This document shows, piece after piece, positions 2 through 17,026 of a stretch of 17,026 nucleotides of DNA. Origin of the DNA: Promethearchaeota archaeon. Lineage in GTDB: Archaea; Asgardarchaeota; Lokiarchaeia; Sigyniarchaeales; SOKP01. Each line of letters begins with the position of its first letter. Positions within the stretch are counted from its first letter, which is position 1. The position numbers and the translations under genes were made by a program. The DNA lies in contig JAEOTS010000172.1 in the NCBI GenBank assembly GCA_016839745.1, forward strand, positions 1 to 17,026. Reading direction: 5' to 3'. The notes beneath the pieces were generated by a model. The model was given only the letters and a program-made list of their open reading frames with translations. It did not search any database and was not told where the DNA came from.

Positions 2-967
2 TTTTCTGTTCTTTCGTATTTATGCTTATTTCTTAAAGGAGTTCCCGAAGATGGACTAGATTATTTAAAAAGAATTCAAAAAAAAGTGGATAAAGAATTT
101 TTCAAAGAAAATCCATTAATAAAGCTCGTTTCTGAAATTACGATTTCTCTAAGAGACAATCAAGTAAAATATGTGGAAAAAATTAAAGAAAATATAGGAC
201 TTTACAAATTCAGAGACGCTGAGATAAAGTTATTAAAAATGGTATTGCTATTAATAAATTTAAAAATGTTGATAGATTCATCATTTGAACTAGATAAAGA
301 AACTTATACCACTAATGAATCTATAAATCTAACTCTCAATTTTATTACATCAAGTTTACCACAGATTTTAAAAGATCCGTACTATCAATTTGAACTCCGC
401 GATTTTAACATAAATAAAATATCGGTTAACCTTACAGATAATTTGACTACGAGTAAAAAACCAGCTGTTCCTTTCGCTATTGATATTGGTAAAGAGACTC
501 GTTTAGAATTCGCAATTAAACCGCATTTTCAAGTTGATAATTCAATAATAGGTCCTTTGTTAATTACTTGTGAACTAAACAAAAATTTAACCTTTATATA
601 TGAAACTCAATCAATAATACCAAAGTTAACTTCACCTCCTGCTACATTATTAACATCAATTAAAAATCTAAGACCTCCCCTTATTGACCAAACTTTTCCT
701 TTAGAAATTTTGATTGAAAATAAGAGTGAAGGAGAAGCGTTAGATGTAAATATTAATGTCGAATTCCCTGAGAAGTTAAAAATTATGAGAGGTACCACGA
801 AGAAACAAATTTATTCATTAAGAACTAACGAGGACTTAAAATGGGAGGTTAACCTTAAACCACTTGAAGCAGGAGATTACATTATTAAAATAAACATAAA
901 ATTTATGGATCCAGACCAAAATAAAATAGAAGAAGTAAAAGAATTTCCATTTTCTGTCAAACTATAG
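2..967 (+). CDS. 5'-truncated hypothetical protein: helical region followed by C-terminal Ig-like beta-sandwich domain(s) (CARDB/BatD/TRAP-beta-like)
   Basis: Frame is open from position 2 (FSVLSYLCLFLKGVPEDGLDYLKRIQKK-VDKEFF...), so the track start at 86 is internal. The C-terminus (DQTFPLEILIENKSEGEALDVNINVEFPEKLKI...LKWEVNLKPLEAGDYIIKINIKFMD) has the alternating beta-strand pattern of Ig-like domains. TAG at 965-967. Confidence 0.6.
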   Translation, partial: FSVLSYLCLFLKGVPEDGLDYLKRIQKKVDKEFFKENPLIKLVSEITISLRDNQVKYVEKIKENIGLYKFRDAEIKLLKMVLLLINLKMLIDSSFELDKETYTTNESINLTLNFITSSLPQILKDPYYQFELRDFNINKISVNLTDNLTTSKKPAVPFAIDIGKETRLEFAIKPHFQVDNSIIGPLLITCELNKNLTFIYETQSIIPKLTSPPATLLTSIKNLRPPLIDQTFPLEILIENKSEGEALDVNINVEFPEKLKIMRGTTKKQIYSLRTNEDLKWEVNLKPLEAGDYIIKINIKFMDPDQNKIEEVKEFPFSVKL

Positions 968-2295: not shown

Positions 2296-3834
2296 ATGAA
2301 GCTAAAAGTAAAAACAATAAATTTTGAGACGGGAAATACTAAAGATGTTGTTTTAAATATTAAGGATGCTCAGAAATTAGGGCAAAAGGCTGGGGACCGT
2401 ATATATATTAAAAACTTAGAATCTAAAAATGTTGAAGATAAATATTGGATTGCAATTTTACAAGTGGATTATTCTAATTCTCTTGTAGAGCCTGGAGAAA
2501 TTGGAATATTTTTAGACATCATTAAAGAAAAAATTGCACTTCAAAATGACATAATTTTATCTGTAAAACCGGCCGATCCTCCAGATTCTTTTAAATTTAT
2601 CCAGAAAAAAATAAAAGGAAATAAACTAACAACTGAAGAAATTAATAGTATTATCTCAGATGCAGTCTCAGGATCTTTATCAAGAATAGATTTAGCAGCA
2701 TTTATAACAGCTGTTTATATAAATGGTATGGATCATGAAGAGATGACATCATTAACATATGCAGAAGCCAGAAGTGGAGACATTTTCAATTTTGGTCCCG
2801 AAGTATATGATAAGCATTCGACAGGAGGAGTGCCAGGGAATAAAGTAACACTTATAATAGTTCCAATTGTTGCCGCTGCAGGTTTAACTATTCCTAAATC
2901 GTCGACCAGAGCTATAACTTCCCCCTCTGGAACTGCTGATTCTATGGAAGTTTTAGCACCGGTTAGTTTTGGAGCCGATAAATTGAAAAGTATCGTGTCA
3001 AAAGAAAACGCTTGTATTATTTGGGGTGGAGCTCTTAATACATCACCTGCGGATAACATATTAATCGAAATTGAACGCCCTTTACGAATGGATCCTATAG
3101 GTCTTATGATACCCTCGATAATCACCAAAAAATTATCTCTAGGAGTTAAAAAACTCGTGTTAGATATACCAGTTGGAGAGGGAACAAAATTTATTACACC
3201 GGATGATGGTAAACAATTCGCTTATATATTTAAAGAAATTGCAAAAAATGTTGGGATTCAAGCGGAGTGCGCTTTAACCCTTGCTCACCAACCTATTGGT
3301 CACGCGATTGGGCCGGGATTAGAAGCCAAAGAAGCATTAACCTTACTTATGGACTATTCTGTTGGTCCAAATTCCTTAATTGAAAAAGCCACAGATTTAG
3401 CAGGTATTTTACTTGAAATGGGAGGAAAAGCTCAAAAAGGAATGGGACAAAATTTAGCAAAGGAAATATTACGATCAGGAAAAGCATTTGAAAAAATGAA
3501 GAAAATTATTGGAGTTCAGGGTGGAAATCCTGAAATTAAACCGGAAGACGTTAAATTAGGGCCTCATATTAAAGAATTTTTTGCCACAAAATCAGGACAC
3601 ATTACTGGCGTAAACAACGCTATCATTAATCAAATAGCTAAAGCTACTGGTTGTCCTCATTCAAAACATTCTGGTGTTGAAATTTTCAAAAAACAAGGGG
3701 CACGAATAAAAGAAGGAGACTTAATCTTCAAAATGTATTCTGAGAGCCAAAACAAATTAAAAAAAGCAGAGAAAATTTACAATTCAACTGGTGGACCTAT
3801 AATTCTTGGCGGAATGATGATAGAAAGAATTTAA
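2296..3834 (+). CDS. deoA: AMP phosphorylase (archaeal thymidine-phosphorylase family, yields ribose-1,5-bisphosphate)
   Basis: 512 aa with the N-terminal extension typical of AMP phosphorylases; motifs DKHSTGGVPGNK, PKSSTRAITSPSGTADSMEVLAPV, QPIGHAIGPGLEAKEAL; C-terminal MMIERI. Confidence 0.92.
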   Translation: MKLKVKTINFETGNTKDVVLNIKDAQKLGQKAGDRIYIKNLESKNVEDKYWIAILQVDYSNSLVEPGEIGIFLDIIKEKIALQNDIILSVKPADPPDSFKFIQKKIKGNKLTTEEINSIISDAVSGSLSRIDLAAFITAVYINGMDHEEMTSLTYAEARSGDIFNFGPEVYDKHSTGGVPGNKVTLIIVPIVAAAGLTIPKSSTRAITSPSGTADSMEVLAPVSFGADKLKSIVSKENACIIWGGALNTSPADNILIEIERPLRMDPIGLMIPSIITKKLSLGVKKLVLDIPVGEGTKFITPDDGKQFAYIFKEIAKNVGIQAECALTLAHQPIGHAIGPGLEAKEALTLLMDYSVGPNSLIEKATDLAGILLEMGGKAQKGMGQNLAKEILRSGKAFEKMKKIIGVQGGNPEIKPEDVKLGPHIKEFFATKSGHITGVNNAIINQIAKATGCPHSKHSGVEIFKKQGARIKEGDLIFKMYSESQNKLKKAEKIYNSTGGPIILGGMMIERI

Positions 3835-3893
3835 TCTACTAATAATACACTATAACTACAAGATAAATCTTTATTTTATTCACATAAACTTCA

Positions 3894-3905
3894 GTTATAT
3901 ATAAC
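3894..3905. promoter_or_regulatory. Perfect palindrome GTTATATATAAC containing a TATA-like element upstream of acxA
   Basis: 12-bp perfect inverted repeat ending 53 nt upstream of the ATG at 3959; contains TTATATA. Confidence 0.4.
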
Positions 3906-3958
3906 ATTAGCTCTAATTATGAAATATATTTTTAAAAAAACGTTTGAGATGAAACAAT

Positions 3959-6145
3959 ATGGCAAAATCAATTAATGTTGATAAAACACATCTATTAAAA
4001 GCGATTGCATTAGATACTGGAGGTACTATGACTGATTCCTTTATTATCGATGAAAATGGTAGTTTTGCTGTAGGAAAAGCGCTAACAACTGGAAAGGAAG
4101 AATCAATTGGAATTTTAAACTCAATAGCAGATTCATTAAACGAATGGGGTAAAAATTTACAAGAAACTGGTTCTGGTGTAGAAGCTTTAGTTTATTCAGG
4201 CACAGCTATGCTAAATAGGCTTTTAGAACGAGAGGGAAATGATAACATTGGAGTTATCGTTAATGCTGGTTTTGAAGATCTCCATCGATTGGGTAGAGCT
4301 TTGCAATGCTGGATGTGGCTTGATTATGCAGGTAGGCTTCATGCTAGAGAACACGAGCACCCTCAACCCCTCATTCATAGAAATCAGTTTAAAGGCGTTC
4401 GAGGGAGAATTAATTTTTGGGGAGAGGAACTAATTCCTCTTTATGAGAAGGATGTAGAAAAAGTTGTAGAAGAGTTACTCGAGATGAATGTAGATTGCAT
4501 TTGTGTATGCTTACTCTGTTCTTTCATGAATTCAAGTCACGAAATGGAGGTTGAAAGAATCGCTAAGCAAGTTATGAAAGAAAAGGGAAGAGAAATTCCA
4601 ATAATACTTTCTTCTGAACACAATCCGGTAAGAGGTGAAACGCCACGATTGAACGCACTTCTAATTGAACAATATGCAGCAGAACCTTCAAGAAAACAAT
4701 TAATTGCGATCGCTAAAAAGCTTAAAGATGAAGGCGTGCCAGCTCCTCTTAGAATCTTAACATCCTATGGTGGAACGATGTCTCCTTACTCTAAGTCACT
4801 TATTCCCACCATGGTTTCAGGACCAATAGGGGGTATGATTGGTAGTAAATTCATTGCTGAAAAATATGGTATTCAAAACTTAGTTTCTTCGGACGTTGGA
4901 GGCACCAGTTTTGATGTAGGCTTAACTATGGAAAAATATGTGCCGACTAAATGGGAAAGTTCACTCGGAGGTTTTATCCTGAACATTCCAATGATAGCAT
5001 TAGATTCCATCGGAGCCGGAACTGGAATGTTTGTGCGATATAATGATATATCAAGCCGTTTAGAGTTTGGTCCTGAGAGTGCTGGCTATAAAATTGGAGT
5101 GTGTAATGAACAATCAGAAATTGAAACCGTAACAATGACCGATTGTAGTTTAATATTAGGTTACCTCAATCCAGATTATTTTCTTGGCGGAAAAGTTCCA
5201 CTAAATAAAAATAGGGCATTTACCTATATTGAGGAACAGATTGCTAAGCCATTTAAGGCTGATCCGTATGAAGCTGCCAGAGGAGCATTAGATTTAATAG
5301 AAATTAACATGAAAAATCACCTAAATGGAATGATTCAAGGACTTGGTTTTCGACCTGAAAACTACACTTTAATATCATTTGGAGGTGGAGGACCTCTTCA
5401 TGTAGCGGGATATTCAAGAGGATTATCCTTTCAAGACATTATGATACCAGAGTGGGCAGCAGCATTCTCTGCATACGGATGTGCTTGTGCTGATCATTCG
5501 TATAGGCACGAAATATCCGTTGATTTGCTTATCGATCCTGAAAGAAACATGAGCTCGTTTGTTGCATCTATGATCACTTCTACATGGAGAGATTTAAAAA
5601 TTAAAATTATGAACGAATTTGAAAAAGAAGGAAGGGACCCTAATGAAATGGAGTTCAGACCGTCACTTAAATTACAATATTTTGGCATGTTAGATGATTT
5701 AGAAGTGCAATCTCCCTATGAAGAATTAATAATTGAACATTCGGAAGAATTAGAACGCTTTGATTCAACTGAATTGAACGATCTTATTCTTAAGTATGAT
5801 GATCTTTTCGAAAAAATATTCCGAAGAGGTACCAAAAGTCCGGAACTTGGATATCATATAACTAAAGTAATAGGCACAGGAGTAGTGAGCGTACCAAAAC
5901 CTGAATTACCCGAACTCGAGTTGAGCAGTGAAAAACCAAATCAAGTAGCTTCTAAAGGGATACGGGAAATCTTTTGGAAAAAAAAATGGCATGATGCTTC
6001 AATTTGGGAGATGAGATTGCTCAAGGCGGGGAATGTCGTAAATGGTCCTGCGGTGATAGAAGCTCCAGCAACTACATTAGTAGTTCCACCTAGCTACCGA
6101 GTAAATCTAGATAAACACAGAATTTTTCATATGGAGGTTGTATAA
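3959..6145 (+). CDS. acxA: Acetone carboxylase beta subunit-like (hydantoinase A/oxoprolinase family, ATP-binding)
   Basis: Motifs ALDTGGTMTDSF, YSGTAMLNRLLER, SGPIGG, DVGGTSFDVG, SIGAGTG, GPESAG, FGGGGPLH, WAAAFSAYG, GPAVIEAPATTLVVP; first gene of a beta-alpha-gamma cluster. Confidence 0.88.
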   Translation: MAKSINVDKTHLLKAIALDTGGTMTDSFIIDENGSFAVGKALTTGKEESIGILNSIADSLNEWGKNLQETGSGVEALVYSGTAMLNRLLEREGNDNIGVIVNAGFEDLHRLGRALQCWMWLDYAGRLHAREHEHPQPLIHRNQFKGVRGRINFWGEELIPLYEKDVEKVVEELLEMNVDCICVCLLCSFMNSSHEMEVERIAKQVMKEKGREIPIILSSEHNPVRGETPRLNALLIEQYAAEPSRKQLIAIAKKLKDEGVPAPLRILTSYGGTMSPYSKSLIPTMVSGPIGGMIGSKFIAEKYGIQNLVSSDVGGTSFDVGLTMEKYVPTKWESSLGGFILNIPMIALDSIGAGTGMFVRYNDISSRLEFGPESAGYKIGVCNEQSEIETVTMTDCSLILGYLNPDYFLGGKVPLNKNRAFTYIEEQIAKPFKADPYEAARGALDLIEINMKNHLNGMIQGLGFRPENYTLISFGGGGPLHVAGYSRGLSFQDIMIPEWAAAFSAYGCACADHSYRHEISVDLLIDPERNMSSFVASMITSTWRDLKIKIMNEFEKEGRDPNEMEFRPSLKLQYFGMLDDLEVQSPYEELIIEHSEELERFDSTELNDLILKYDDLFEKIFRRGTKSPELGYHITKVIGTGVVSVPKPELPELELSSEKPNQVASKGIREIFWKKKWHDASIWEMRLLKAGNVVNGPAVIEAPATTLVVPPSYRVNLDKHRIFHMEVV
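6133..6138 (+). promoter_or_regulatory. Shine-Dalgarno site for acxB within the last codons of acxA
   Basis: GGAGGT ending 10 nt before ATG 6149. Confidence 0.7.
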
Positions 6146-6148
6146 ATA

Positions 6149-8365
6149 ATGTTTAAAAAACCAATTGGATGGAATGCAAAAACCATCAAAGAAATGTTGG
6201 AAGAAAGCGAGAAGCTTATAGAAGAAAAAAAGAGTTATTATGGCATAGAAAGATTGAGCTTAAAAGAAGAGGATCCTTTCAGATACGAGAGAGCGTATGC
6301 GAGTTTAAGAGGTGCTTTAGTATCAGCAAGAGAAACTGCATTGCACGTTGCGGCCTCACCAATTGTCACAGAAATTGGTGAACTTTGTTTCGCGCTCTAT
6401 ACTCCTGAGGGGGATTCAATAGTAGTATCAACAGGAATTTTAGTACATGTCCATACAATGAGCGAAGGAATAAAGTTCATGATTCGAGAAGGGTACGAGG
6501 AGGATCCTACCATAAATCAAGGAGATATTTTTCTTAACAATGACCCTCAGTGTGGTAATGTTCATACAACCGATGTACAAACTCTCATTCCGATTTTTTG
6601 GGAGGACGAATTAATTGGTTGGGCGGGGGGAGTTACTCATCAAATTGATATTGGAGGTATCACACCTGGTCATACTTTAGTTTCTTCAATTCAGAGATTT
6701 GATGATGGAGTTTATTATACTTGCAGAAAAATCGGTTCTAACGATAAAATCTGGCGCGATCATATGATTAGCGCAAAAAAATCGGTTCGGAGTCCGATGT
6801 ATTGGGAATTAGATGAGAAATGCCGGCTTGCAGGCAATCTAATGATAAGAGATGCTGTTTACGAATTTATAAAAAGAGAAGGAATTGAGTATTACAAAAC
6901 CTTTATGCGAGAAGCGATTGAAGAAGGAAGAAGAATCGTTATAGAAAGAGTGAAAGAGCGTTTAATTCCTGGTCGGTACAGAGCAGCTTCGTTTATGGAC
7001 CTTCCAATGAAAGATCAAGCATGGGTACCTAGAGCGAGAATAGATCGAATATCTAATCACCCTATGGAGATTGTAGTTAAGGGTGATGGAGGATTTTCAC
7101 TTTCCTTTGATGGTGCTAGCGCAGGAGGAGCAAATGCGTTTAATTGTGATAAAGGAGCGATGGAAGGAGGTCAATGGGTTTTATTAACACAAATCTTGAT
7201 TTATGGAGATAAAGTTAATGATGGAGCCTATTTTGCTGTAGAAAAAGATTATCCTTTAGGATCTTGGGCAAACCCTGGAGATCCATATCTTTCATATCAA
7301 GCGCCATGGGGTAATTTGATCCCTGCATATACAACAATGATGAAGTGCATGTCTTATGGACTGTTTTCTCGAGGATTCAGAGAAGAAGTTGTACCAGGAT
7401 ACGGCTTTACCGGAGATTCTATCCAAGGAGGAGGAATCTACTCTGCTGGACCTCTAAAAGGCGAACGATGGATGTTGTCGACATTTGAAATATCAGGACA
7501 AGGATTAGGCGCGAGTGCGGTAAGAGACGGTCTCAATTGGGGCTATGCAATGTGGAATCCTGAAGCCGATTTAGGGGATGTTGAAACTTGGGAACTCTTT
7601 CAAGGTGGTATTCCTTACTTATCTAGAAAAGTAAAACCAAACACACCTGGTCACGGTAAATATCGAGGTGGAGCAAATTATGCCGGTGTGGCCTATATAG
7701 CAAATTCTGAAAAGGTAGAATTCTTCGCAGGTAGAGAGGGGCTAGTATTTCATGGGTCTGGGGGTATGCATGGAGGATATCCTAATGCTACGAGTTATCG
7801 ATTAATCGCTACAAATACAAATTTAGAAGAGATTTTTCAAAATCGACAAGATTATCCAATCAGTGATACTGATCCTAACAATGGTGAATTTGAGAGATTT
7901 CTAAAAGCAGATATAATGAGAATACCAATAGGGACTATTTATCCAATTTCATTAGAGAATTTTGATATAATTCACTTCTCAGAGAGTGGTGGGCCTGGTT
8001 ATGGAGATCCTCTCGAGCGAAAATTAGAGAGTGTAAAACAAGACCTTGATGAGGGATTATATACGTCAGATATTGTGAAAAGTGTCTATGGTATTGTTGC
8101 TGATTATGATGATAATAATAAAGAATGGAAAATCAATATTGAAGCAAGTACAAAATGTCGAGAAGAGATTATGAAAGAAAGAAAAGAAAAATCTTTGACT
8201 TTTGAGGAATTTTGGGAACATGAAAGAAAAAAATTAACAGAAGAAAGACTATATGAATCGGTAAGTAGAATGTACTCAGAAAGTTTAAAGCTATCATCTA
8301 AATGGGGGAAAGAATTTCGTGAGTTCTGGAAGCTTCCTGAGGATTTCCAGATGGAGGTGAAATGA
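6149..8365 (+). CDS. acxB: Acetone carboxylase alpha subunit-like (hydantoinase B/oxoprolinase family, metal-binding)
   Basis: Motifs ARETA..AASPIV.E.GELCF, GNVHTTD, GGVTHQID, QRFDDG, WNPEADLGDVETWEL, GKYRGG, GGPGYGDPLER, EFREFWKLP. E78/H139/D142/H164 have the spacing of the Mn ligands of acetone carboxylase alpha subunits. Confidence 0.9.
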   Translation: MFKKPIGWNAKTIKEMLEESEKLIEEKKSYYGIERLSLKEEDPFRYERAYASLRGALVSARETALHVAASPIVTEIGELCFALYTPEGDSIVVSTGILVHVHTMSEGIKFMIREGYEEDPTINQGDIFLNNDPQCGNVHTTDVQTLIPIFWEDELIGWAGGVTHQIDIGGITPGHTLVSSIQRFDDGVYYTCRKIGSNDKIWRDHMISAKKSVRSPMYWELDEKCRLAGNLMIRDAVYEFIKREGIEYYKTFMREAIEEGRRIVIERVKERLIPGRYRAASFMDLPMKDQAWVPRARIDRISNHPMEIVVKGDGGFSLSFDGASAGGANAFNCDKGAMEGGQWVLLTQILIYGDKVNDGAYFAVEKDYPLGSWANPGDPYLSYQAPWGNLIPAYTTMMKCMSYGLFSRGFREEVVPGYGFTGDSIQGGGIYSAGPLKGERWMLSTFEISGQGLGASAVRDGLNWGYAMWNPEADLGDVETWELFQGGIPYLSRKVKPNTPGHGKYRGGANYAGVAYIANSEKVEFFAGREGLVFHGSGGMHGGYPNATSYRLIATNTNLEEIFQNRQDYPISDTDPNNGEFERFLKADIMRIPIGTIYPISLENFDIIHFSESGGPGYGDPLERKLESVKQDLDEGLYTSDIVKSVYGIVADYDDNNKEWKINIEASTKCREEIMKERKEKSLTFEEFWEHERKKLTEERLYESVSRMYSESLKLSSKWGKEFREFWKLPEDFQMEVK
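8353..8360 (+). promoter_or_regulatory. Shine-Dalgarno site for acxC within the last codons of acxB
   Basis: GGAGGTGA ending 8 nt before ATG 8369. Confidence 0.75.
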
Positions 8366-8368
8366 GCA

Positions 8369-8863
8369 ATGGATGTCGATAAAAAAACTCTGGAAAGAAT
8401 GATAGAAGGGAATTTAAAATGGGATGAACTTAAGCCAATTATAAGCGGGAGAAAAGATCAAAACAGATTCGACAAGATTATGGAGATATTGCAGGAAAAA
8501 GTGAAATTCGACGAAAAAATACTTCTTCCTCTACACGAACACCTCTATATCGTAGCTAAAGAGGGTCAAAGAATAGTTAAATGTGATTGTGGTTACGAAT
8601 TTGGGGATTACAAAATTAATTGGAAGACAAAATGTAGGATAAGAGTTAGAGATTCAATTGATTCCATTGAGGAACTTTACCCTAAATTTATGGGAAGCGA
8701 TCCAAAATGGGAGGAATTGCGAGAATATTTTTGTCCTAAATGTTTTACTCTTTTAGATGTTGAAGCAGTGCCCCCGGGATATCCAACGATCTTTAATTTT
8801 TTACCCGATATTGATACCTTCTATGAGAAATGGCTAGGAAGAAATCCACCAGATAAGGAATAG
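8369..8863 (+). CDS. acxC: Acetone carboxylase gamma subunit (Zn-binding)
   Basis: KD..RF motif, KILLPLHEHLYIV, CDCGYEFGDYKINWK (CxC), REYFCPKC (CxxC), DVEAVPPGYP, FLPDIDTFYEKWLG. Confidence 0.93.
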   Translation: MDVDKKTLERMIEGNLKWDELKPIISGRKDQNRFDKIMEILQEKVKFDEKILLPLHEHLYIVAKEGQRIVKCDCGYEFGDYKINWKTKCRIRVRDSIDSIEELYPKFMGSDPKWEELREYFCPKCFTLLDVEAVPPGYPTIFNFLPDIDTFYEKWLGRNPPDKE

Positions 8864-9026: not shown

Positions 9027-10529
9027 TTGATGGAATTATCTCCTCAACTCATTAAAAAAAACTATGGGAATAAAAAATTAGATAAATTTTCGGCAATAAA
9101 TCAACTCACCTCAATTATAGAAAATAGTGAAGATTTACAAGCCAGAATTGAAAGTATTAGTGTTTTAGCTCAAATTAACGCTAATACTGAGAGTGTTTTC
9201 ACGCTATTAGAAAATTTATTAATTTCAGATTCGCACGAAATTATAAGATATACTGCCGCAACAGTAATAGAAAAAGTATTTTTGGACATCGCTCTTGAAC
9301 CATTAAAATGGGTTCTTAAACATGAAGAATCTTTAAGATGCCTGTTAACAGTCTCCAAGATCTTAGGAAAAATGGATTCCTTTCAATCAAAATCATTGTT
9401 AATAGATAGGATTGAAAGAATTTCAAATGAAAAAATAGCAGAAAATTTAAAATTCTTGTTCGAAAAAAGAAAAATTGAAAGCTTTTCTAGCCTTGAACTT
9501 TCAAATATTGTTGAGAATTATTTTATTATAACGGATTTGGAAAAAAAATTTGGTCAGATTAGTTATCAGGTGAAAAATGGACTAATATTTCAATTAGATT
9601 TATCTGATGTCAGTAGTCATGTTTTTGGATGGACAATTTTGAATAAGTTTCCTGAATTTATAAAATTTTTAACTTCATTAAATAACTTAGATTTAAAATT
9701 TAATAGGCTTACTGCGATTCCTGACACTATTAGCCTTTTACCTTCAATAACATATTTCGATTTGAGTTATAATAAAATTAAATCTCTTCCTGATTCTATT
9801 GGATCGTTAAATGTATTAAAATTTCTGAATTTAAGATATAATAAATTAAAAAACTTACCAGCATCTATTGGTTCTTTATCATCGTTAATACATCTAGATT
9901 TAAGAGCTAACGAATTATCTTCCCTGCCAAATACGATTAAAAATTTATCAAAATTAGAAATTTTGGATTTACACGGAAACAACTTGTGCAAACTAAATGT
10001 GTCTTTTAAAGGAATGAATTCTCTAAAACAATTAGAGTTAGGATTGAATAATATCGAGCATCTACCTAAGTGTATTAAATCTCTTAAGTCTCTAAAAAGA
10101 TTAGGTTTAGGAGGGAATAAATTGTCAGTCCTTCCTAATTGGATTGGGTCGTTCCAATCATTAAAATTTTTACATTTATTTGATAACCAATTAAGTCAGC
10201 TTCCTAATTCAATTGGTACGATTTCTAATCTTGAAGAATTAACCTTATGGAATAACCGTATAACCTCGCTACCTAAGTCATTCAGTGCCCTTAGTAAATT
10301 AAAGAAATTAAATTTAAGTTGGAATCGTTTCGAAAGTTTACCTAGTTGGATTGGATCGCTTAAGTCTCTTGAAACATTAAGTTTATGGGGAAACAAATTG
10401 AAATCGCTCCCCAATTCCCTAGAAAATCTCACATCATTGAGAATCCTCGATTTAAATTTTAACAACATCACAGAAATACCGAGCTTTTTGAGCGAATTAG
10501 AAAAAAGTGGATTAATAATCTATAAATAA
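9027..10529 (+). CDS. HEAT-like N-terminal domain + leucine-rich repeat protein (about 12 x 23-aa LRRs)
   Basis: N-terminal helical HEAT-like segment (LLENLLISDSHEIIRYTAA...ALEPLKWVLKHE), then about 12 repeats of LxxLxLxxNxLxxLPxxIxxLxx. Start is TTG 9027 or ATG 9030. Confidence 0.9.
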   Translation: MMELSPQLIKKNYGNKKLDKFSAINQLTSIIENSEDLQARIESISVLAQINANTESVFTLLENLLISDSHEIIRYTAATVIEKVFLDIALEPLKWVLKHEESLRCLLTVSKILGKMDSFQSKSLLIDRIERISNEKIAENLKFLFEKRKIESFSSLELSNIVENYFIITDLEKKFGQISYQVKNGLIFQLDLSDVSSHVFGWTILNKFPEFIKFLTSLNNLDLKFNRLTAIPDTISLLPSITYFDLSYNKIKSLPDSIGSLNVLKFLNLRYNKLKNLPASIGSLSSLIHLDLRANELSSLPNTIKNLSKLEILDLHGNNLCKLNVSFKGMNSLKQLELGLNNIEHLPKCIKSLKSLKRLGLGGNKLSVLPNWIGSFQSLKFLHLFDNQLSQLPNSIGTISNLEELTLWNNRITSLPKSFSALSKLKKLNLSWNRFESLPSWIGSLKSLETLSLWGNKLKSLPNSLENLTSLRILDLNFNNITEIPSFLSELEKSGLIIYK

Positions 10530-10542
10530 CTGAGGGATTAGT

Positions 10543-11925
10543 ATTACGAAACGTACACCTTCTAAAATTTTTGATGAACTAAATAAGAATATCTTGGATA
10601 AACAGTCTGCCGTTCAGCAATTAATCGCAATAATAGAAAACAGCACAAAAACTAAGTATAGATTAGAAAGTCTTCAAATTTTAAGAAAATTAAGCACCAA
10701 ATTCGAGAATTTCGGAGGAAATAAGGATTCCTTACTAAGTTTTTTTGAAAATTTACTTATTTCGGATACAGATGAAATAATCAGAAATGAAGCTGCTCTT
10801 ATTCTACGTCATGGATACAATTATAAAGCGCTGAATCCAATGAGGTGGGCTCTACATCACGAGGTATCTCCACTCTGTTTACAGACGATTTTTAAATCAT
10901 TGATAATAATAGTTAAAAATCTTGTAAAAAGAAATGAACCTATAGCTAAATTAATATTAGTTCATGAAATAAAGCAAATTAATGACAAAGATTTTAAAAT
11001 AGGTTTTGAAGTTTTAAAATCTACCAAAGAAACTGGAGAATTTACTACTAGAGAGTTATCTGATATTTTAATAAATTACTTTTCCATAATGTACTTAAAA
11101 AAATCTTATTGGAGATTGAAGTACACGATTCATCAATGTAAAGTCATAGAGTTAGATTTTATTTTCAAAGGTTTAACAAAATTACCTAGCGCTATACAAC
11201 ACCTTACAAACCTCAAAAAATTAACTTTACGATATAATCAAATTACCGAACTTCCTGATTGGATTGAATCTTTACATGGTTTAGAATCTCTAAATCTAAA
11301 TGTAAATAATATAAACAATCTTCCGACAACTATAGGATCTCTTTCTCATCTAAAAGAATTATTGCTATGGAAGAATGAACTTCAAGATCTTCCAAATTCT
11401 ATCTGCTCCTTACAGTCATTAAAATATTTAAATTTAAGATTAAACCAAATTAAACTATTACCTTATAATTTTGGGAATTTAATAAACCTTATAGACTTAA
11501 ATCTTCACGATAACAAACTAACCGAGATTCCAAAGTCAATATCATCTCTCAAATCCCTAAAGGCATTGAATTTGAGTTGGAACTTATTATCAACTCTATC
11601 CCCATCAATAACTAGTTTAGGCTCACTTATATCATTAGATCTTGAAAGAAATGAATTGATACAAATTCCAACATCAATTGGTTCTCTTAAGTCGCTAGAG
11701 ATATTGAATTTGGGGGATAATAAGATAGAAAAAATTCCAGAAACGATTGGAAGTTTAAAGAAGTTAAGAATTTTAAATATATCTAGAAATAAATTAAAAA
11801 ACCTCCCGGAATCACTATACTCTCTTGAGAATTTAGAAGAATTATATCTCAGTGAAAACTATCTTGATATAAGTTCTATATTTTTGAAGAAATTGGAGGA
11901 TAAGGGAGTAAAAATCTTTCTCTAA
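10543..11925 (+). CDS. HEAT-like N-terminal domain + leucine-rich repeat protein (about 10 x 23-aa LRRs), paralog of the upstream gene
   Basis: Same architecture (FFENLLISDTDEIIRNEAA...ALNPMRWALHHE, about 10 LRRs). Track start is TTG 10594, but the frame is open from 10534 and similarity to the paralog extends to 10543/10546; the start is uncertain. Confidence 0.88.
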   Translation: MTKRTPSKIFDELNKNILDKQSAVQQLIAIIENSTKTKYRLESLQILRKLSTKFENFGGNKDSLLSFFENLLISDTDEIIRNEAALILRHGYNYKALNPMRWALHHEVSPLCLQTIFKSLIIIVKNLVKRNEPIAKLILVHEIKQINDKDFKIGFEVLKSTKETGEFTTRELSDILINYFSIMYLKKSYWRLKYTIHQCKVIELDFIFKGLTKLPSAIQHLTNLKKLTLRYNQITELPDWIESLHGLESLNLNVNNINNLPTTIGSLSHLKELLLWKNELQDLPNSICSLQSLKYLNLRLNQIKLLPYNFGNLINLIDLNLHDNKLTEIPKSISSLKSLKALNLSWNLLSTLSPSITSLGSLISLDLERNELIQIPTSIGSLKSLEILNLGDNKIEKIPETIGSLKKLRILNISRNKLKNLPESLYSLENLEELYLSENYLDISSIFLKKLEDKGVKIFL

Positions 11926-11942
11926 ATTATGAATTCTCGCCT

Positions 11943-13700
11943 TTATTGAGATTCATAAAGGCTTCTAATTTCTTCAACTGTCGTTGCGTCCTCAGGACCT
12001 TTTTCAGGTCGGACTTTTTGGAAAACAGGGAATCGCATAGAATATCCTAATGTAAGAAATTTCTCGCTAACCGTTATTTCATCCCCAAAAATCTCAACTA
12101 CGACTTCCGGTTTAAACCAAACATCTGGAATATCTTCACAAATAACATTATTGTGTTTTTTTTCAGTTTTATAATTCTCCATTTCTTTTGTTAGGGTGTC
12201 TGATAATTCATCGGTCAATCCTGAAAAAAAACGAGTAAAAGCAACATATTTACCATTCATAGGATCATAAACTGCTCCAATATAAGTTCCATATACGCCT
12301 GTTCTTCGACCCTTACCATAAAAAGCTCCAACTAATACAACATCTACAGAATCCTTTAACTTTCCTCCTTCTAATCCCTTTAATTTTATCCATAAGAATC
12401 CTCTATTTCCTGCTTGATATATGGAATCTTCTTTAATTGATTTTGCCATAATCCCTTCATTCCCTTCTTTTCGAGCTGCATTAAAAAATTCTAAGAGTTC
12501 CTCTGTATCATGGATTAATTTCGATTTGACTAAACGTAGTTCATCTCTCTCAGATACAATTTCCTCTAGCTTTTGTCTACGTTCCATAAAATTTTTACCA
12601 ATAAAGGATTCGTTTTTATACTTTAATAAATCAAATAGGTATAAACAAACGGGTACTTCCTTCATAATTTCTTCAACATCATACTTTCGCCTTCTTTTAC
12701 TTAAAACCTGAAAAGGTAACATTTTTTCGTAAAAAGAGTCCATAGCAACCACTTCTCCCTCTATAATCACATCATCAATTTGAACATTTTCAATTATAGT
12801 TTCACAAACATCAGGATATTGATCAGATATTTCCAATAATCGACGAGAAAACAATTTTACTTCCTGTCCCTGTTTATGGATTTGGAGTCTTTCACCATCT
12901 AATTTATATTCTGCAGTAAGAGGAGTTCCAAGTTTCTCAACTATCTCACCATAAGGAACTCTCGATGCCAACATCATCCTTATTGGTATCCCATAGGTCA
13001 TTCCTATTTTTTCTACTTCAGTAATTCCTTTTTCTGCTAAGATTTTTGTGATATCCCCTAAATCCGGATGCAAATTATATGCTTTTTCAATAATACTCCT
13101 ATTTTCTTTGCTACCCGTAAAACCTAATGCTAAACCATCAATTATAGTCATAGTTGAGACTCCTACTCTTAAGGTAGAAGTGATTATTCGTAATAAGTAC
13201 TTATTTTCTAGAGGGGCGCATTTTCGCATTAATCCTCTTAAAATTCCTAGTTTAACATCTTGTGATCCCGCTCCTTCACTTAAAGCAATTTTTTGCAGAG
13301 CTAAATATAATTCTGAAATTTCTAAAGAAGGTTCTAATCCGCTTGGACTATCCTCAAAATCAAATAGAGACATCTGTGTCCTCCTGTTAGTTAAAATTAG
13401 TTCTGCAGTAGCTCCAATATCGCCTTTCTTTATTAAAATTTCTTTTATTTTTTTTTTATCGATGCCAGAATGTAGAGTTAACGCTTCAATTATCATTTTT
13501 TCTGCAAGGCCAATTTTAGGGAATTGCTTTATGTTTGAAACTAACTCTCCCTGTAACAAGTATATAATTTTATCTAAATCTTCATAATTATTGCTTCTTT
13601 TTACCTCTTCAAAAAAGGCAGATAAGAAATCTATCATTTCAAGCCTTTTTGCAGTAGATTCTAAATTTGAAAAAAGGGTTGCTAAGATTTTAAATTTCAT
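11943..13700 (-). CDS. lig: ATP-dependent DNA ligase (archaeal/eukaryotic LigI type)
   Basis: N-terminal DNA-binding domain; motif I EYKLDGERLQIHK, IIEGEVVA, LFDLL, EGIMAK, YQAGNRGFLWIKLK, DVVLVGAFYGKGRR, SMRFPVFQKVRPEK. Confidence 0.97.
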   Translation of the reverse strand: MKFKILATLFSNLESTAKRLEMIDFLSAFFEEVKRSNNYEDLDKIIYLLQGELVSNIKQFPKIGLAEKMIIEALTLHSGIDKKKIKEILIKKGDIGATAELILTNRRTQMSLFDFEDSPSGLEPSLEISELYLALQKIALSEGAGSQDVKLGILRGLMRKCAPLENKYLLRIITSTLRVGVSTMTIIDGLALGFTGSKENRSIIEKAYNLHPDLGDITKILAEKGITEVEKIGMTYGIPIRMMLASRVPYGEIVEKLGTPLTAEYKLDGERLQIHKQGQEVKLFSRRLLEISDQYPDVCETIIENVQIDDVIIEGEVVAMDSFYEKMLPFQVLSKRRRKYDVEEIMKEVPVCLYLFDLLKYKNESFIGKNFMERRQKLEEIVSERDELRLVKSKLIHDTEELLEFFNAARKEGNEGIMAKSIKEDSIYQAGNRGFLWIKLKGLEGGKLKDSVDVVLVGAFYGKGRRTGVYGTYIGAVYDPMNGKYVAFTRFFSGLTDELSDTLTKEMENYKTEKKHNNVICEDIPDVWFKPEVVVEIFGDEITVSEKFLTLGYSMRFPVFQKVRPEKGPEDATTVEEIRSLYESQ

Positions 13701-13817: not shown

Positions 13818-14717
13818 TTATAGAAATTTTGAAAGCTCTACAAATTTCTTCTGTATTTCCGTTTTAACATTGGTAGAAATTCCAGAAAAAGAATCTGAAG
13901 TAAATTTAATCTTACCATCGGAAATTGAGAATTCGCAGACTTTGCCGTCCATATGTTCGACAGAATACCCCCCATCCTCTTTCTTCGAAATCCATATGTC
14001 ATCGTAATGATCTAATACTCCAATAAACACAAATCCTATTTTTGCCTGAACAGCAAGATCCAATTTAGATTTGGGAGCGATAGATTGTTTTGGTATGGAA
14101 GCGGGGGTAGCTTTTACAATTATTTCCTCAACCGGCTCGCTTATTTTTGGAGTCTCAACTTTCATATCATATTCAGAAGCAGGTATCATTGTTGGTTGAG
14201 GTTGAGCTACTTGTTTAATGGGTTCTGGTTTGCTTATGGGTGTGGGTACAGATTCTGGTTTGCTTATGGGTTTGGGTACAGTTTCTGGTGTTACTTTTGG
14301 TTCAGGTTTAGTTGCTGGTTTGATTGCTGAAGGGAAATCTGCTTCTAATTCAAAAGTAACAGTATAATCATCTAAAGGTTTAAAATTTTTATTTAACAGT
14401 GTTTGGAGCTCGTCGTTTAATTCGTCGATTTCTAGTACTCTCCCAATTTTCCTTTGATCTATTTCTTTTAAATGTCTAATATCTCTTCCCACTATACTTT
14501 TACCCACTGAAAAACCATGCCCTTTTAACGATTCTGCCTGTCTGAGGGCGGTTCTCCTTGAAACTAAACCTTGATTAGCTCCATACCACAAATAAAGCGA
14601 AGATGATCCTTCATCTAAAATTATAATATTATTATCAGGCGTTAAATTATCTTTAGACCATTTAATAGGCTCACTTACGCCGCCTTCTAAAACCTGAAAC
14701 ATTATTGCGAATTCCAT
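13818..14717 (-). CDS. Gelsolin-like domain protein with Pro/Lys/Glu-rich linker and an unknown C-terminal domain
   Basis: N-terminal ~110 aa (LTPDNNIIILDEGSSSLYLWYGANQGLVSRRTALRQAESL) fits the gelsolin/villin repeat pattern L..D..ILD....hYhW.G.....+..A...A..L. A low-complexity linker follows, then ~80 aa of globular-looking sequence. Confidence 0.7.
   Translation of the reverse strand: MEFAIMFQVLEGGVSEPIKWSKDNLTPDNNIIILDEGSSSLYLWYGANQGLVSRRTALRQAESLKGHGFSVGKSIVGRDIRHLKEIDQRKIGRVLEIDELNDELQTLLNKNFKPLDDYTVTFELEADFPSAIKPATKPEPKVTPETVPKPISKPESVPTPISKPEPIKQVAQPQPTMIPASEYDMKVETPKISEPVEEIIVKATPASIPKQSIAPKSKLDLAVQAKIGFVFIGVLDHYDDIWISKKEDGGYSVEHMDGKVCEFSISDGKIKFTSDSFSGISTNVKTEIQKKFVELSKFL
14223..14312. 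repeat. 30-bp coding tandem repeat (2 near-identical copies + 1 degenerate)
   Basis: TTCTGGTTTGCTTATGGGTGTGGGTACAGA / TTCTGGTTTGCTTATGGGTTTGGGTACAGT / TTCTGGTGTTACTTTTGGTTCAGGTTTAGT; encodes TVPKPISKPE / SVPTPISKPE on the minus strand. Confidence 0.85.
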
Positions 14718-14935: not shown

Positions 14936-16027
14936 ATGGAAATTGAAAAGTTGTTCAGAGAAAATCTTCAAAAGTATAATTCGTATGAAACAGAAGAACA
15001 TCCAGAAGGCGATGGTTGGATAAAATTAAATGTTAATGAAAATGCATATCCCCCAATCCAAGAAATACTCGAGGATATAAATTCTGCTTTGAAAAATAAA
15101 GATTTATTGAGAAAATATCCCGATCCGCTTGCTCTTGAGCTTCGTAAAGCGATTCTAAATCAACTTTTAAGAGATAAAGACACATTAACTAATAGAAACA
15201 CAGTTTTTATAGGAAATGGCTCAGATGAAGTATTGGATGTTATCTTTAAAGTATTCGTTAATCCTGGCGATGAAGTAATCATTCTATATCCAAGTTTTAG
15301 TTTGTATAAGGTTTTAGCTACTCTTTACGATGCAAAAATAAATGAGATAAAATTAAACGACGATTTTTCTATACCAGAGAGCATTTATGACCAAAAAGGT
15401 AAACTAATGTTTATAAATTCTCCGAACGATCCAAATGGAAAATCGTTTGATAACGATGCGATACTTAAAATTTGCTACAATTTCCCCGGAATTGTCGTAG
15501 TAGACGAAGCGTATGCAGATTTTTCTGACTTTACATGTCTGCCATTATTGAAGGATGTTAAAAATTTAATTGTTTGCCGTAGTTTCTCAAAAACATTCTC
15601 AATGGCCTCTCTAAGAATTGGGTACGCATTAGCTGACGCAATAATCGTTAAAGAAATGAATAGAGTTAAGTTACCTTTTAATACAAATAATATTGCACAA
15701 TTTGCAGCTATCTCTTGTATTAAACATAGGAGTAAAGTATACGAACAAAATAAGAAAATTATTGCAGAGAGAAAAAGACTGACTGAAAAATTAAATATCT
15801 ATAATGGAATAAGTGTCCTTCCTTCAGATTCGAACTTTATATTTTTAAAATTTGATAATAAATCTACTACATTAAAATTCTTATGGGATTTAAAAGATCT
15901 CAAAATTTTGGTAAGACATTTCAGTAAACCGGACCTTTATAATTATATAAGAATCACTATTGGAACAAAAGAAGAAAATGATAAATTTTTAGAAGCATTT
16001 AATTCCATTGCTGATAAATATTTATAA
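14936..16027 (+). CDS. hisC: Histidinol-phosphate aminotransferase-like (PLP-dependent class I/II)
   Basis: Motifs KLNVNENAYPP, YPDP, GNGSDE, NSPNDPNG, DEAYADF, RSFSKTFSMASLRIGY (PLP lysine), PSDSNF, IRITIGT. Confidence 0.85.
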   Translation: MEIEKLFRENLQKYNSYETEEHPEGDGWIKLNVNENAYPPIQEILEDINSALKNKDLLRKYPDPLALELRKAILNQLLRDKDTLTNRNTVFIGNGSDEVLDVIFKVFVNPGDEVIILYPSFSLYKVLATLYDAKINEIKLNDDFSIPESIYDQKGKLMFINSPNDPNGKSFDNDAILKICYNFPGIVVVDEAYADFSDFTCLPLLKDVKNLIVCRSFSKTFSMASLRIGYALADAIIVKEMNRVKLPFNTNNIAQFAAISCIKHRSKVYEQNKKIIAERKRLTEKLNIYNGISVLPSDSNFIFLKFDNKSTTLKFLWDLKDLKILVRHFSKPDLYNYIRITIGTKEENDKFLEAFNSIADKYL

Positions 16028-16131
16028 ACCCAATATATTTATACAAAATTTTTTATTTTCTTCACATAATAATTAATTATTAGATTTAATTATCCAAAAC
16101 AAATTTAAATTGCTAGTGGAGTTGGTTTTGA

Positions 16132-17026
16132 ATTTCTAATCCTCTATTTTCGCCTAGGAGAGATCAAGTTGAATGTGAAAATTGTGGATATAAGATCGTA
16201 AAGCCTTATCCAAAAAACCAACTCTGCCCAAAATGTAATAAATTTTTGCCTAATCTTTTTAAATATGTTGATAACACAGAGGTTGAAACGAAAAAACTTG
16301 ATCCTGAAGAATTCAAACCGATAACTGAAACCGCATCCTCAAGAATACAAGGTGTAAGAAGAATAGAGGTGACAAACGCAATTTCTTTAGACGATGAAAG
16401 AATCGATCTCGGAGGAAATGAATACGTAAAATTTTGTGGGATAACTTCAGTTGATAGAACTCCATTGTATGCGAGTAACAAAAAACTCCTTTATTTATTA
16501 GAATTGACCAATAATTTAGATTTCATAGCTACCAGTATTTTAGGGGGGGATCTCGACAAGATGCTCCTCAAATCTGAAAACAACGAAACAGATAAATGTC
16601 AATTCTTTGAGAAGAACCATATCATTTACATCCTTTACGGGAAATTCCCCGATAAGAAAGGTAAATGGGTTCTTGAACAAATGGCGAAATATTTCTCCGA
16701 TTTAGTTAGTGGTAAAGACGTGAACAACTTAAGTAAAATTGATAAATTTAACATAGAAAAGGAGTTTATAGGGCGTCTCCTTTATATATTTAAAGAATAC
16801 AAGCAATTACAAACGGTGTTTTCAGATCAAGAGATTCCTTATGTAGAGGATTGGATTCGATTAGATTATGTTGGTTTGTCTTCCATGTCAATAGGTGTCA
16901 TATCAGTATTACTCGATGATGAAGAACAATTGAATGTTAAATTACCAGGAGAATTTGAGAATCCCGCCGAAGAGGTAGAAATGAAAGAATCGCGTCTGAC
17001 AGCGCAAGTGGAAGCGATTGCTGCAA
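16132..17026 (+). CDS. 3'-truncated hypothetical protein: N-terminal zinc ribbon + putative longin-like domain(s); not in the ORF track
   Basis: Manual translation is stop-free from 16132 to the window end: ISNPLFSPRRDQVECENCGYKIVKPYPKNQLCPKCNKFLP...EYVKFCGITSVDRTPLYASNKKLLYLLELTNNLDFIATSILGGDLDKMLLKSENNETDKCQFFEKNHIIYILYGKFPDKKGKWVLEQMAKYFSDLV...IRLDYVGLSSMSIGVISVLL... Confidence 0.75.
   Translation, partial: MSNPLFSPRRDQVECENCGYKIVKPYPKNQLCPKCNKFLPNLFKYVDNTEVETKKLDPEEFKPITETASSRIQGVRRIEVTNAISLDDERIDLGGNEYVKFCGITSVDRTPLYASNKKLLYLLELTNNLDFIATSILGGDLDKMLLKSENNETDKCQFFEKNHIIYILYGKFPDKKGKWVLEQMAKYFSDLVSGKDVNNLSKIDKFNIEKEFIGRLLYIFKEYKQLQTVFSDQEIPYVEDWIRLDYVGLSSMSIGVISVLLDDEEQLNVKLPGEFENPAEEVEMKESRLTAQVEAIAA

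Follow-up and report, generated by a model that had tools for sequence, protein, structure and literature searches.

The stretch of DNA analysed here, 17,026 bp long and referred to as the window, is the whole of contig C156 of a 3.53-Mb metagenome-assembled genome (MAG) with 89% completeness and 5.8% contamination. It belongs to a Loki-type Asgard archaeon and contains an operon of three genes, which, judged from their sequences, form an intact ATP-driven ketone carboxylase operon of the acetone-carboxylase family (Table 1). The assignment to the family can be considered secure. The three open reading frames (ORFs) are intact and are separated by spacers of three nucleotides, ATA and GCA, in agreement with the original prediction of a complete operon at positions 3959–8863. 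Shine–Dalgarno-like sites of the GGAGGT type are positioned 8–13 nucleotides upstream of the ATG codons of the alpha and gamma genes. The gene set consists of beta, alpha, and gamma only, without a second hydantoinase-A paralogue and without a candidate for an epsilon subunit. The gamma gene is the sole PF08882 gene in the genome.

The AT-rich region upstream of the beta gene contains two TATA-like stretches, TTATATATAA at approximately 3897–3906 and ATATATTTTTAAAAAAA at approximately 3925–3940, and may provide the promoter and 5′ leader of the operon. The region remains collinear with the corresponding DNA of relatives, despite the presence in those relatives of an additional 2.3-kb cassette, encoding a ferredoxin and an aldehyde:ferredoxin oxidoreductase (AFOR), immediately upstream.

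Table 1. Positions of the carboxylase operon and of other features in the window.
Feature	Position	Strand	Basis
ORF	2..967	+	
AMP phosphorylase	2296..3834	+	
Junction at which cassette 1 of relatives is missing	3835..3850		
Putative archaeal promoter and 5′ leader, AT-rich, conserved	3850..3958	+	sequence reading, collinearity with relatives
Beta subunit, AcxB-like, 728 aa, hydantoinase A family ATPase	3959..6145	+	ORF, Pfam, PDB match, motifs
Alpha subunit, AcxA-like, 738 aa, hydantoinase B family	6149..8365	+	ORF, Pfam, PDB match, metal ligands
Gamma subunit, AcxC-like, 164 aa, small Zn-ribbon	8369..8863	+	ORF, PF08882, PDB match, cysteines
Leucine-rich repeat protein, 500 aa, N-terminal HEAT repeats	9027..10529	+	
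Leucine-rich repeat protein, 443 aa	10594..11925	+	
Junction at which cassette 2 of relatives is missing	11925..11942		
ATP-dependent DNA ligase	11943..13700	-	
ORF	13818..14717	-	
ORF	16246..17025	+	

The product of the first gene contains the Pfam domains Hydant_A_N, Hydantoinase_A, and Hydant_A_C, that of the second Hydantoinase_B, and that of the third Acetone_carb_G (PF08882, E-value 8e-40). The best PDB matches of all three proteins are structures of the acetone carboxylase AcxABC: 5svb_B for beta (2e-186), 5m45_A for alpha (7e-169), and 5svb_C for gamma (4e-45), sequence similarities that chance cannot explain. The beta subunit scores 625 bits against AcxB of Xanthobacter autotrophicus, 331 bits against the gamma subunit of acetophenone carboxylase (Apc gamma), and 207 bits against caprolactamase A. 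The corresponding values for the alpha subunit are 567 bits against AcxA, 130 bits against Apc delta, and 45–51 bits against hydantoinase and caprolactamase, whereas the gamma subunit scores 157 bits against AcxC and 30 bits against Apc beta, and has no match among the hydrolases. NCBIfam contains no acetone-carboxylase model, and in a search of this collection only the Apc and Cap (CapA, CapB) models match, all with scores far below their cut-offs.

The residues expected of an acetone carboxylase are conserved in all three subunits. The Mn ion of the X. autotrophicus enzyme is coordinated by Glu89, His150, Asp153, and His175 (PMC5543143), which align with E78, H139, D142, and H164 of the window alpha subunit. 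The alpha subunit retains the motifs GELCF, GNVHxxD, and GGVTH, and the metal-ligand motifs are present throughout the Asgard clade described below. The zinc ligands of the X. autotrophicus gamma subunit are Cys74, Cys76, Cys124, and Cys127 (PMC5543143), and they align with C72, C74, C122, and C125. The beta subunit holds both ATPase motifs of the actin fold (ASKHA-type), D19-TGGTMTD and S311-DVGGTSFD, and its F408 aligns with the adenine-stacking Phe405. Two other beta residues differ: Ser391 is conservatively replaced by Thr394, and Asn578 by Asp579. The metal ligands, the four zinc cysteines, and the ATP-binding motifs had all been named in the original prediction, and the alignments bear them out.

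Phylogenetic trees were calculated from representatives at 50% identity, Asgard sequences, and reference enzymes from plasmid records (C. metallidurans CH34, P. denitrificans, C. sphaeroides, and Natronorubrum). The named references were taken from the plasmid collection because a scan of genome contigs with a six-sequence alpha alignment recovered little other than Solirubrobacterales relatives of its first row. The CH34 alpha subunit can stand in for the characterised enzymes, since it scores 1296 bits against that of X. autotrophicus. FastTree and IQ-TREE agree on one clade (SH-aLRT 100) that divides into two. In clade A, the proteobacterial enzymes are joined by sequences from haloarchaea, Actinomycetota, and Desulfobacteraceae, whereas clade B is composed of a tight Asgard clade and a few other relatives. 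Many further Acx-like clades, as well as the Apc-like sequences, fall outside A and B. The Asgard proteins are much closer to the characterised enzymes than to the Apc-like outgroup, as judged from the trees, or to hydantoinases, as judged from bit scores. Of the 119 alignment columns that are invariant inside both clades, 113 are identical between them. According to these sequence comparisons, the Asgard proteins are a new, separate clade within a known enzyme family.

Pfam assigns the large subunits to its Hydantoinase_A and Hydantoinase_B families, and most Asgard homologues are called merely "hydantoinase B/oxoprolinase family protein" at NCBI, as would be expected if an ATP-dependent hydrolase of the hydantoinase, 5-oxoprolinase, or caprolactamase type had been misread as a carboxylase. 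However, this is very improbable given the alpha scores (45–51 bits against hydantoinase and caprolactamase, 567 bits against acetone carboxylase), the complete set of carboxylase metal ligands, and the presence of a full-length gamma subunit, which is specific to ketone carboxylases (PMC13677872). The original prediction had relied on the gamma subunit to separate the operon from generic hydantoinase/oxoprolinase pairs, and the bit scores uphold that separation, contrary to the grouping with hydantoinases or oxoprolinases that it had named as a refutation. They also carry the distinction from hydrolases, because the trees contain Apc-like sequences as a distant outgroup but no hydantoinase, oxoprolinase, or caprolactamase row. 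The operon could also be bacterial DNA that entered an archaeal MAG through mis-binning or chimeric assembly. Its GC content is 37.8%, compared with 32.3% for the genome, which places it in the top 1% of 4.9-kb segments; its tetranucleotide correlation is 0.90, compared with 0.99 for the flanks; and the contamination of the MAG is estimated at 5.8%. However, the GC content at third codon positions (GC3, 0.26–0.27) and the synonymous codon usage of the operon are at or above the genome median, and since both are typical of the genome, the GC excess reflects amino-acid composition. The window is collinear with three independent assemblies from ENA, JGI, and NCBI, at 88–90% nucleotide identity and with the same gene order apart from two clean cassette insertions or deletions, which effectively refutes foreign origin by assembly or binning. 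In five related species genomes the operon and the DNA ligase share one contig. The closest alpha homologues, at 73–98% identity, are all from Asgard MAGs (Promethearchaeota, Lokiarchaeia, Thor-, Hod-, Hermod-, and Freyarchaeota), and the DNA ligase of the window is 84–89% identical to proteins labelled Lokiarchaeota or Promethearchaeota. The probability of a mis-binned or chimeric operon is thus practically negligible. The contig is native and non-chimeric, and its host is a Loki-type Asgard archaeon, as had been proposed from the sequence.

The operon most probably encodes a canonical alpha2beta2gamma2 ATP-dependent carboxylase of a small aliphatic ketone, most likely acetone and possibly also butanone; the probability of this reading is estimated at about 0.6. 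If the mechanism follows that of the Xanthobacter enzyme, ATP would be bound by the beta subunit, which would phosphorylate the enolised ketone and bicarbonate. The phosphorylated intermediates would then move to the metal centre of the alpha subunit (Mn or Fe), where formation of a C–C bond would yield a beta-keto acid (acetoacetate) with the release of AMP and two phosphates. The gamma subunit would serve as a structural component stabilised by zinc. The acetoacetate would join the acetoacetate and acetoacetyl-CoA network of the genome, which includes thiolases, 3-hydroxyacyl-CoA dehydrogenases, beta-keto-acid cleavage enzymes (BKACE), and acyl-CoA ligases. Both the stoichiometry of the reaction and the fate of the product are what we infer from this scheme.

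Acetone is the leading candidate for the substrate, and it can be put forward only as a proposal, because the Asgard proteins constitute a sister clade with differing second-shell residues. The original prediction of carboxylation of acetone or another ketone therefore holds with respect to the enzyme family, but acetone itself is not established as the substrate. Several observations weigh against an acetone carboxylase of the canonical kind. The Asgard clade is a sister of the characterised clade rather than nested within it, with an identity of about 40% (38–44%). The second-shell segments of the Asgard and characterised enzymes differ (GNVHTTDVQT and GNVHPCDIxT, WGNLIPAYT and WHFLVSSWT, WGYAMWNPE and HAAAIWNPE, respectively), and Trp408 and Trp438 of X. 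autotrophicus are replaced in the window alpha subunit. Y466 and D423 are further examples of residues specific to the Asgard clade. Sequence class does not predict the substrate in this superfamily, as an Apc-like enzyme carboxylates acetone and C5–C6 ketones (PMC13677872). A search of four Asgard contexts for conserved neighbouring genes revealed no neighbour common to them, so that the operon appears self-contained. A transferase of the ScoAB/AtoDA type was not found in the genome, which contains just two weak, non-adjacent CoA_trans proteins located amid amino-acid biosynthesis genes. The CoA ligases that accompany the operon in sister branches have no orthologue in the genome, the paralogues reaching only about 30% identity. 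Furthermore, strict anaerobes, as far as they have been studied, avoid the costly carboxylation of acetone, and the sulfate reducers take a cheaper path (PMC4103992); searches of the genome, which is 89% complete, revealed neither COX1 (haem-copper oxidase) nor NarG.

The enzyme may alternatively perform the same ATP-dependent carboxylation beside a carbonyl group on a physiological substrate other than acetone, such as a longer methyl ketone or another small carbonyl compound from sediment fermentations. The resulting beta-keto acid would be different, and would be processed by BKACE-type enzymes or CoA ligases. This possibility agrees with the separate position of the Asgard group and its fixed and second-shell differences, with the variation in substrate range across the superfamily (PMC13677872), and with the six BKACE paralogues in the genome of the window. 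It also agrees with a sister-branch operon (locus L093) that is followed by genes for BKACE, thiolase/DUF35, and acyl-CoA dehydrogenase, and that adjoins a CoA ligase gene. However, the canonical three-subunit enzymes that have been studied accept acetone and butanone only (PMC13677872), every named catalytic residue is unchanged in the Asgard proteins, and the neighbours of the operon in the core Asgard clade give no hint of a larger substrate. A substrate other than acetone is thus unlikely rather than remote, and a small aliphatic ketone such as acetone is preferred.

The genome of the window is well supplied with enzymes that could process acetoacetyl-CoA, with 11 thiolase-like genes, more than ten 3-hydroxyacyl-CoA dehydrogenase genes, and six BKACE genes. 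On a single strand, the locus L101 (G000:C43:12000-20000) encodes a BKACE protein, a thioesterase of the 4HBT type, a bona fide thiolase, and a 3-hydroxyacyl-CoA dehydrogenase, and it is a candidate module for the handling of acetoacetate and acetoacetyl-CoA. In sister branches, the operon is followed by an AMP-forming CoA ligase gene (Natronorubrum and locus L095), and both this arrangement and the BKACE/thiolase arrangement of L093 fit a beta-keto-acid product. A true acetoacetyl-CoA synthetase is absent from the genome, the best score against the model being 290 bits with a cut-off of 521, and acetoacetate decarboxylase was sought in the genome and not found. Of the downstream enzymes listed as a check in the original prediction, thiolases are plentiful, as are 3-hydroxyacyl-CoA dehydrogenases, but an acetoacetate-CoA ligase or transferase, whether linked to the operon or of clear orthology, was not found. 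Acetoacetate is drawn as an intermediate in the metabolism of the cultured Lokiarchaeon MK-D1 (PMC7015854).

Acetone carboxylation consumes 2–4 ATP equivalents (PMC4103992). Because of this cost, and because no respiratory chain was found in the genome, a role in carbon assimilation, ketone salvage, or as an electron sink is more likely than energy-yielding growth on acetone, and an energy-yielding fermentation or catabolism of acetone is unlikely. The occurrence of Acx-type operons in MAGs of other anaerobes (Desulfobacteraceae and Anoxymicrobiaceae) tempers the energetic argument. It is conceivable, if quite doubtful, that the Asgard clade represents a conserved and horizontally shared step of carbon salvage and CO2 fixation in energy-limited anaerobes. 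The ketone, acetone or a relative of it, would leak from acetoacetate-producing fermentations (lysine or BKACE routes) or come from the sediment, and would be recaptured by the enzyme. The product would be converted to acetoacetyl-CoA, which could feed butyrate-type electron sinks or mevalonate lipid synthesis, and the AMP would be recycled by the adjacent AMP phosphorylase and the RuBisCO route. If so, this would be the first archaeal, non-respiratory use of the costly carboxylase.

The operon is an accessory cassette. The PF08882 gamma family is present in 78 of the 400 species genomes of the phylum, in 70 of the 134 of the family of the window, and in 20 of the 41 of its genus, and is missing from several genomes scored as 100% complete. 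The alpha subunit is 73–98% identical across Asgards, whereas the identity of the neighbouring DNA ligase decreases to 42–43%. Alpha identity to the window levels off near 75% regardless of the distance between the organisms, while ligase identity drops from 78% to 42%. Alleles similar to that of the window (85–90%) occur in other genera and in another family, whereas closer relatives have a 78% allele. Within the family of the window, genome G155 (genus g5; ligase 68%) has an alpha subunit with 90% identity and a second copy with 78%, and G196 (genus g12; ligase 72%) has one with 87%. In another family (f16), the alpha subunit of G063 is 86% identical to that of the window, while its AMP phosphorylase is only 43% identical. 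In contrast, G233 and G241, which belong to the same genus as the window and are closer to it according to the ligase (78%), have alpha subunits of 78% identity. Since the similarity of the operon does not track the relatedness of the organisms, transfer among Asgards is suggested; overall, these sequence comparisons point to strong constraint on the operon, combined with transfer or with paralogue sorting.

Genomes of other families (G120, contigs C28 and C103; G119; G121; G122; and G116:C29) contain one or two extra Acx-like alpha copies with 42–44% identity to that of the window, each accompanied by its own PF08882 gene, which indicates that several distinct lineages of ketone-carboxylase-like enzymes coexist in the phylum. 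The contigs that carry the alpha homologue clusters do not exceed 0.92 Mb, whereas cultured Asgard strains have closed genomes of more than 4 Mb, which hints that these strains lack the operon. In G249, which belongs to the genus of the window, the ligase gene next to the operon (G249:C24:296180-297925) has 69% identity and seven in-frame stop codons (two TGA, three TAG, and two TAA), which may reflect either a pseudogene or poor assembly of the region.

The carboxylase operon and the two leucine-rich repeat (LRR) genes are flanked by the genes for AMP phosphorylase and DNA ligase. In two other Asgard families (G118:C334, G120:C23, and G116:C4) the latter two genes are directly adjacent and divergent. 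AMP is released by both the ligase and the carboxylase. A functional link of the operon to the adjacent AMP phosphorylase was considered and is taken as coincidence, because the adjacency is confined to close relatives of the window. The genome also contains a homologue of the RuBisCO large subunit (C20:1474-2316), so that the archaeal AMP-salvage route may be present.

Two cassettes of the relatives are missing from the window, and both junctions are clean and intergenic (the corresponding segments of L090 are 5403–7701 and 15777–16961). Cassette 1, positioned in the relatives directly 5′ of the operon, encodes a small ferredoxin and an AFOR of 634 aa; an AFOR orthologue is absent elsewhere in the genome of the window, the best match having 29% identity. 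Cassette 2, positioned before the DNA ligase gene, encodes a glycosyltransferase. The tandem pair of LRR genes is kept in close relatives. The best NCBIfam names for the LRR proteins are those of the bacterial type III effectors XopAC, XopAE, and XopL; these are generic LRR matches, since all scores are far below the cut-offs. The three remaining ORFs of the window encode proteins of 260–321 aa without a Pfam or NCBIfam match, and those at both outer flanks of the phosphorylase and ligase genes (2–967 and 13818–14717) are positionally conserved in related assemblies. A scan of the window for tRNA genes and Rfam families found none.

Some Asgard proteins are already labelled as acetone carboxylase subunits in databases, and a literature search found no paper that discusses acetone carboxylase in Asgard archaea and yielded neither expression nor activity data for any Asgard homologue. 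The view of the original prediction that this capacity is unusual for Lokiarchaeia thus applies to the searched literature, but not to the genes, which are common and already annotated in Asgard genomes. Provided that it acts on acetone or other small ketones, the enzyme would give many Loki-type and other Asgards an O2-independent, CO2-incorporating entry to acetoacetyl-CoA metabolism, a ketone-carboxylation route that is unmentioned in the metabolic reconstructions of Asgards in that literature. It is puzzling that a reaction of such ATP cost is among the most conserved accessory cassettes of a lineage presumed to live close to the thermodynamic limit.

The operon most closely resembles those of the characterised acetone carboxylases AcxABC of X. 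autotrophicus Py2 (PDB 5SVB, 5SVC, and 5M45; EC 6.4.1.6) and of Cupriavidus metallidurans CH34, with which it shares the beta-alpha-gamma gene order, similar subunit lengths, the Mn ligands, the zinc cysteines of gamma, the ATP motifs of beta, and the equivalent of Phe405. The Xanthobacter enzyme has been expressed in E. coli. It differs from the X. autotrophicus enzyme in the replacement of two of the four tryptophans of the proposed metal filter and in the switch pair, alpha-Glu85 and beta-Asn578, which is Thr74 and Asp579 in the window. The sigma-54 regulator of the AcxR type that adjoins the operon in Cereibacter is absent from the window, and, in contrast to the proteobacterial enzymes, that of the window belongs to an anaerobic archaeal host whose genome yielded neither a respiratory oxidase nor a nitrate reductase.

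The same three-gene layout is present in haloarchaeal Acx operons (plasmids of Natronorubrum, Natrinema, and Halococcus) and in MAGs of anaerobes (Desulfobacteraceae, Anoxymicrobiaceae, and Solirubrobacterales), with identities to the window of 41–47% for alpha and up to 59% for gamma. These sequences have the motifs KEIGELCF, DVQT, IDIG, and LIPAFT in common with the Asgard clade, but group in the tree with the proteobacterial enzymes. Downstream of the Natronorubrum operon are genes for a CoA ligase and for a glyoxalase-fold protein of the VOC family, both of which are missing from the window. Apc of Aromatoleum aromaticum (PDB 5L9W) and Acr, an acetone carboxylase of the Apc-like type from Rhodococcus aetherivorans, belong to the same superfamily and carboxylate ketones in an ATP-dependent manner, and their small Zn subunit is a homologue of gamma. 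However, these heterodecameric enzymes employ two hydantoinase-A paralogues and also require an epsilon subunit of about 30 kDa, whereas the window has only one hydantoinase-A gene and no epsilon candidate, and Apc is a distant relative both by score (130 bits for alpha and 30 bits for gamma) and in the tree. CapAB, N-methylhydantoinase, and 5-oxoprolinase have the Pfam domains of the large subunits in common with the window proteins, but they catalyse hydrolysis and lack the gamma subunit that the operon of the window encodes.

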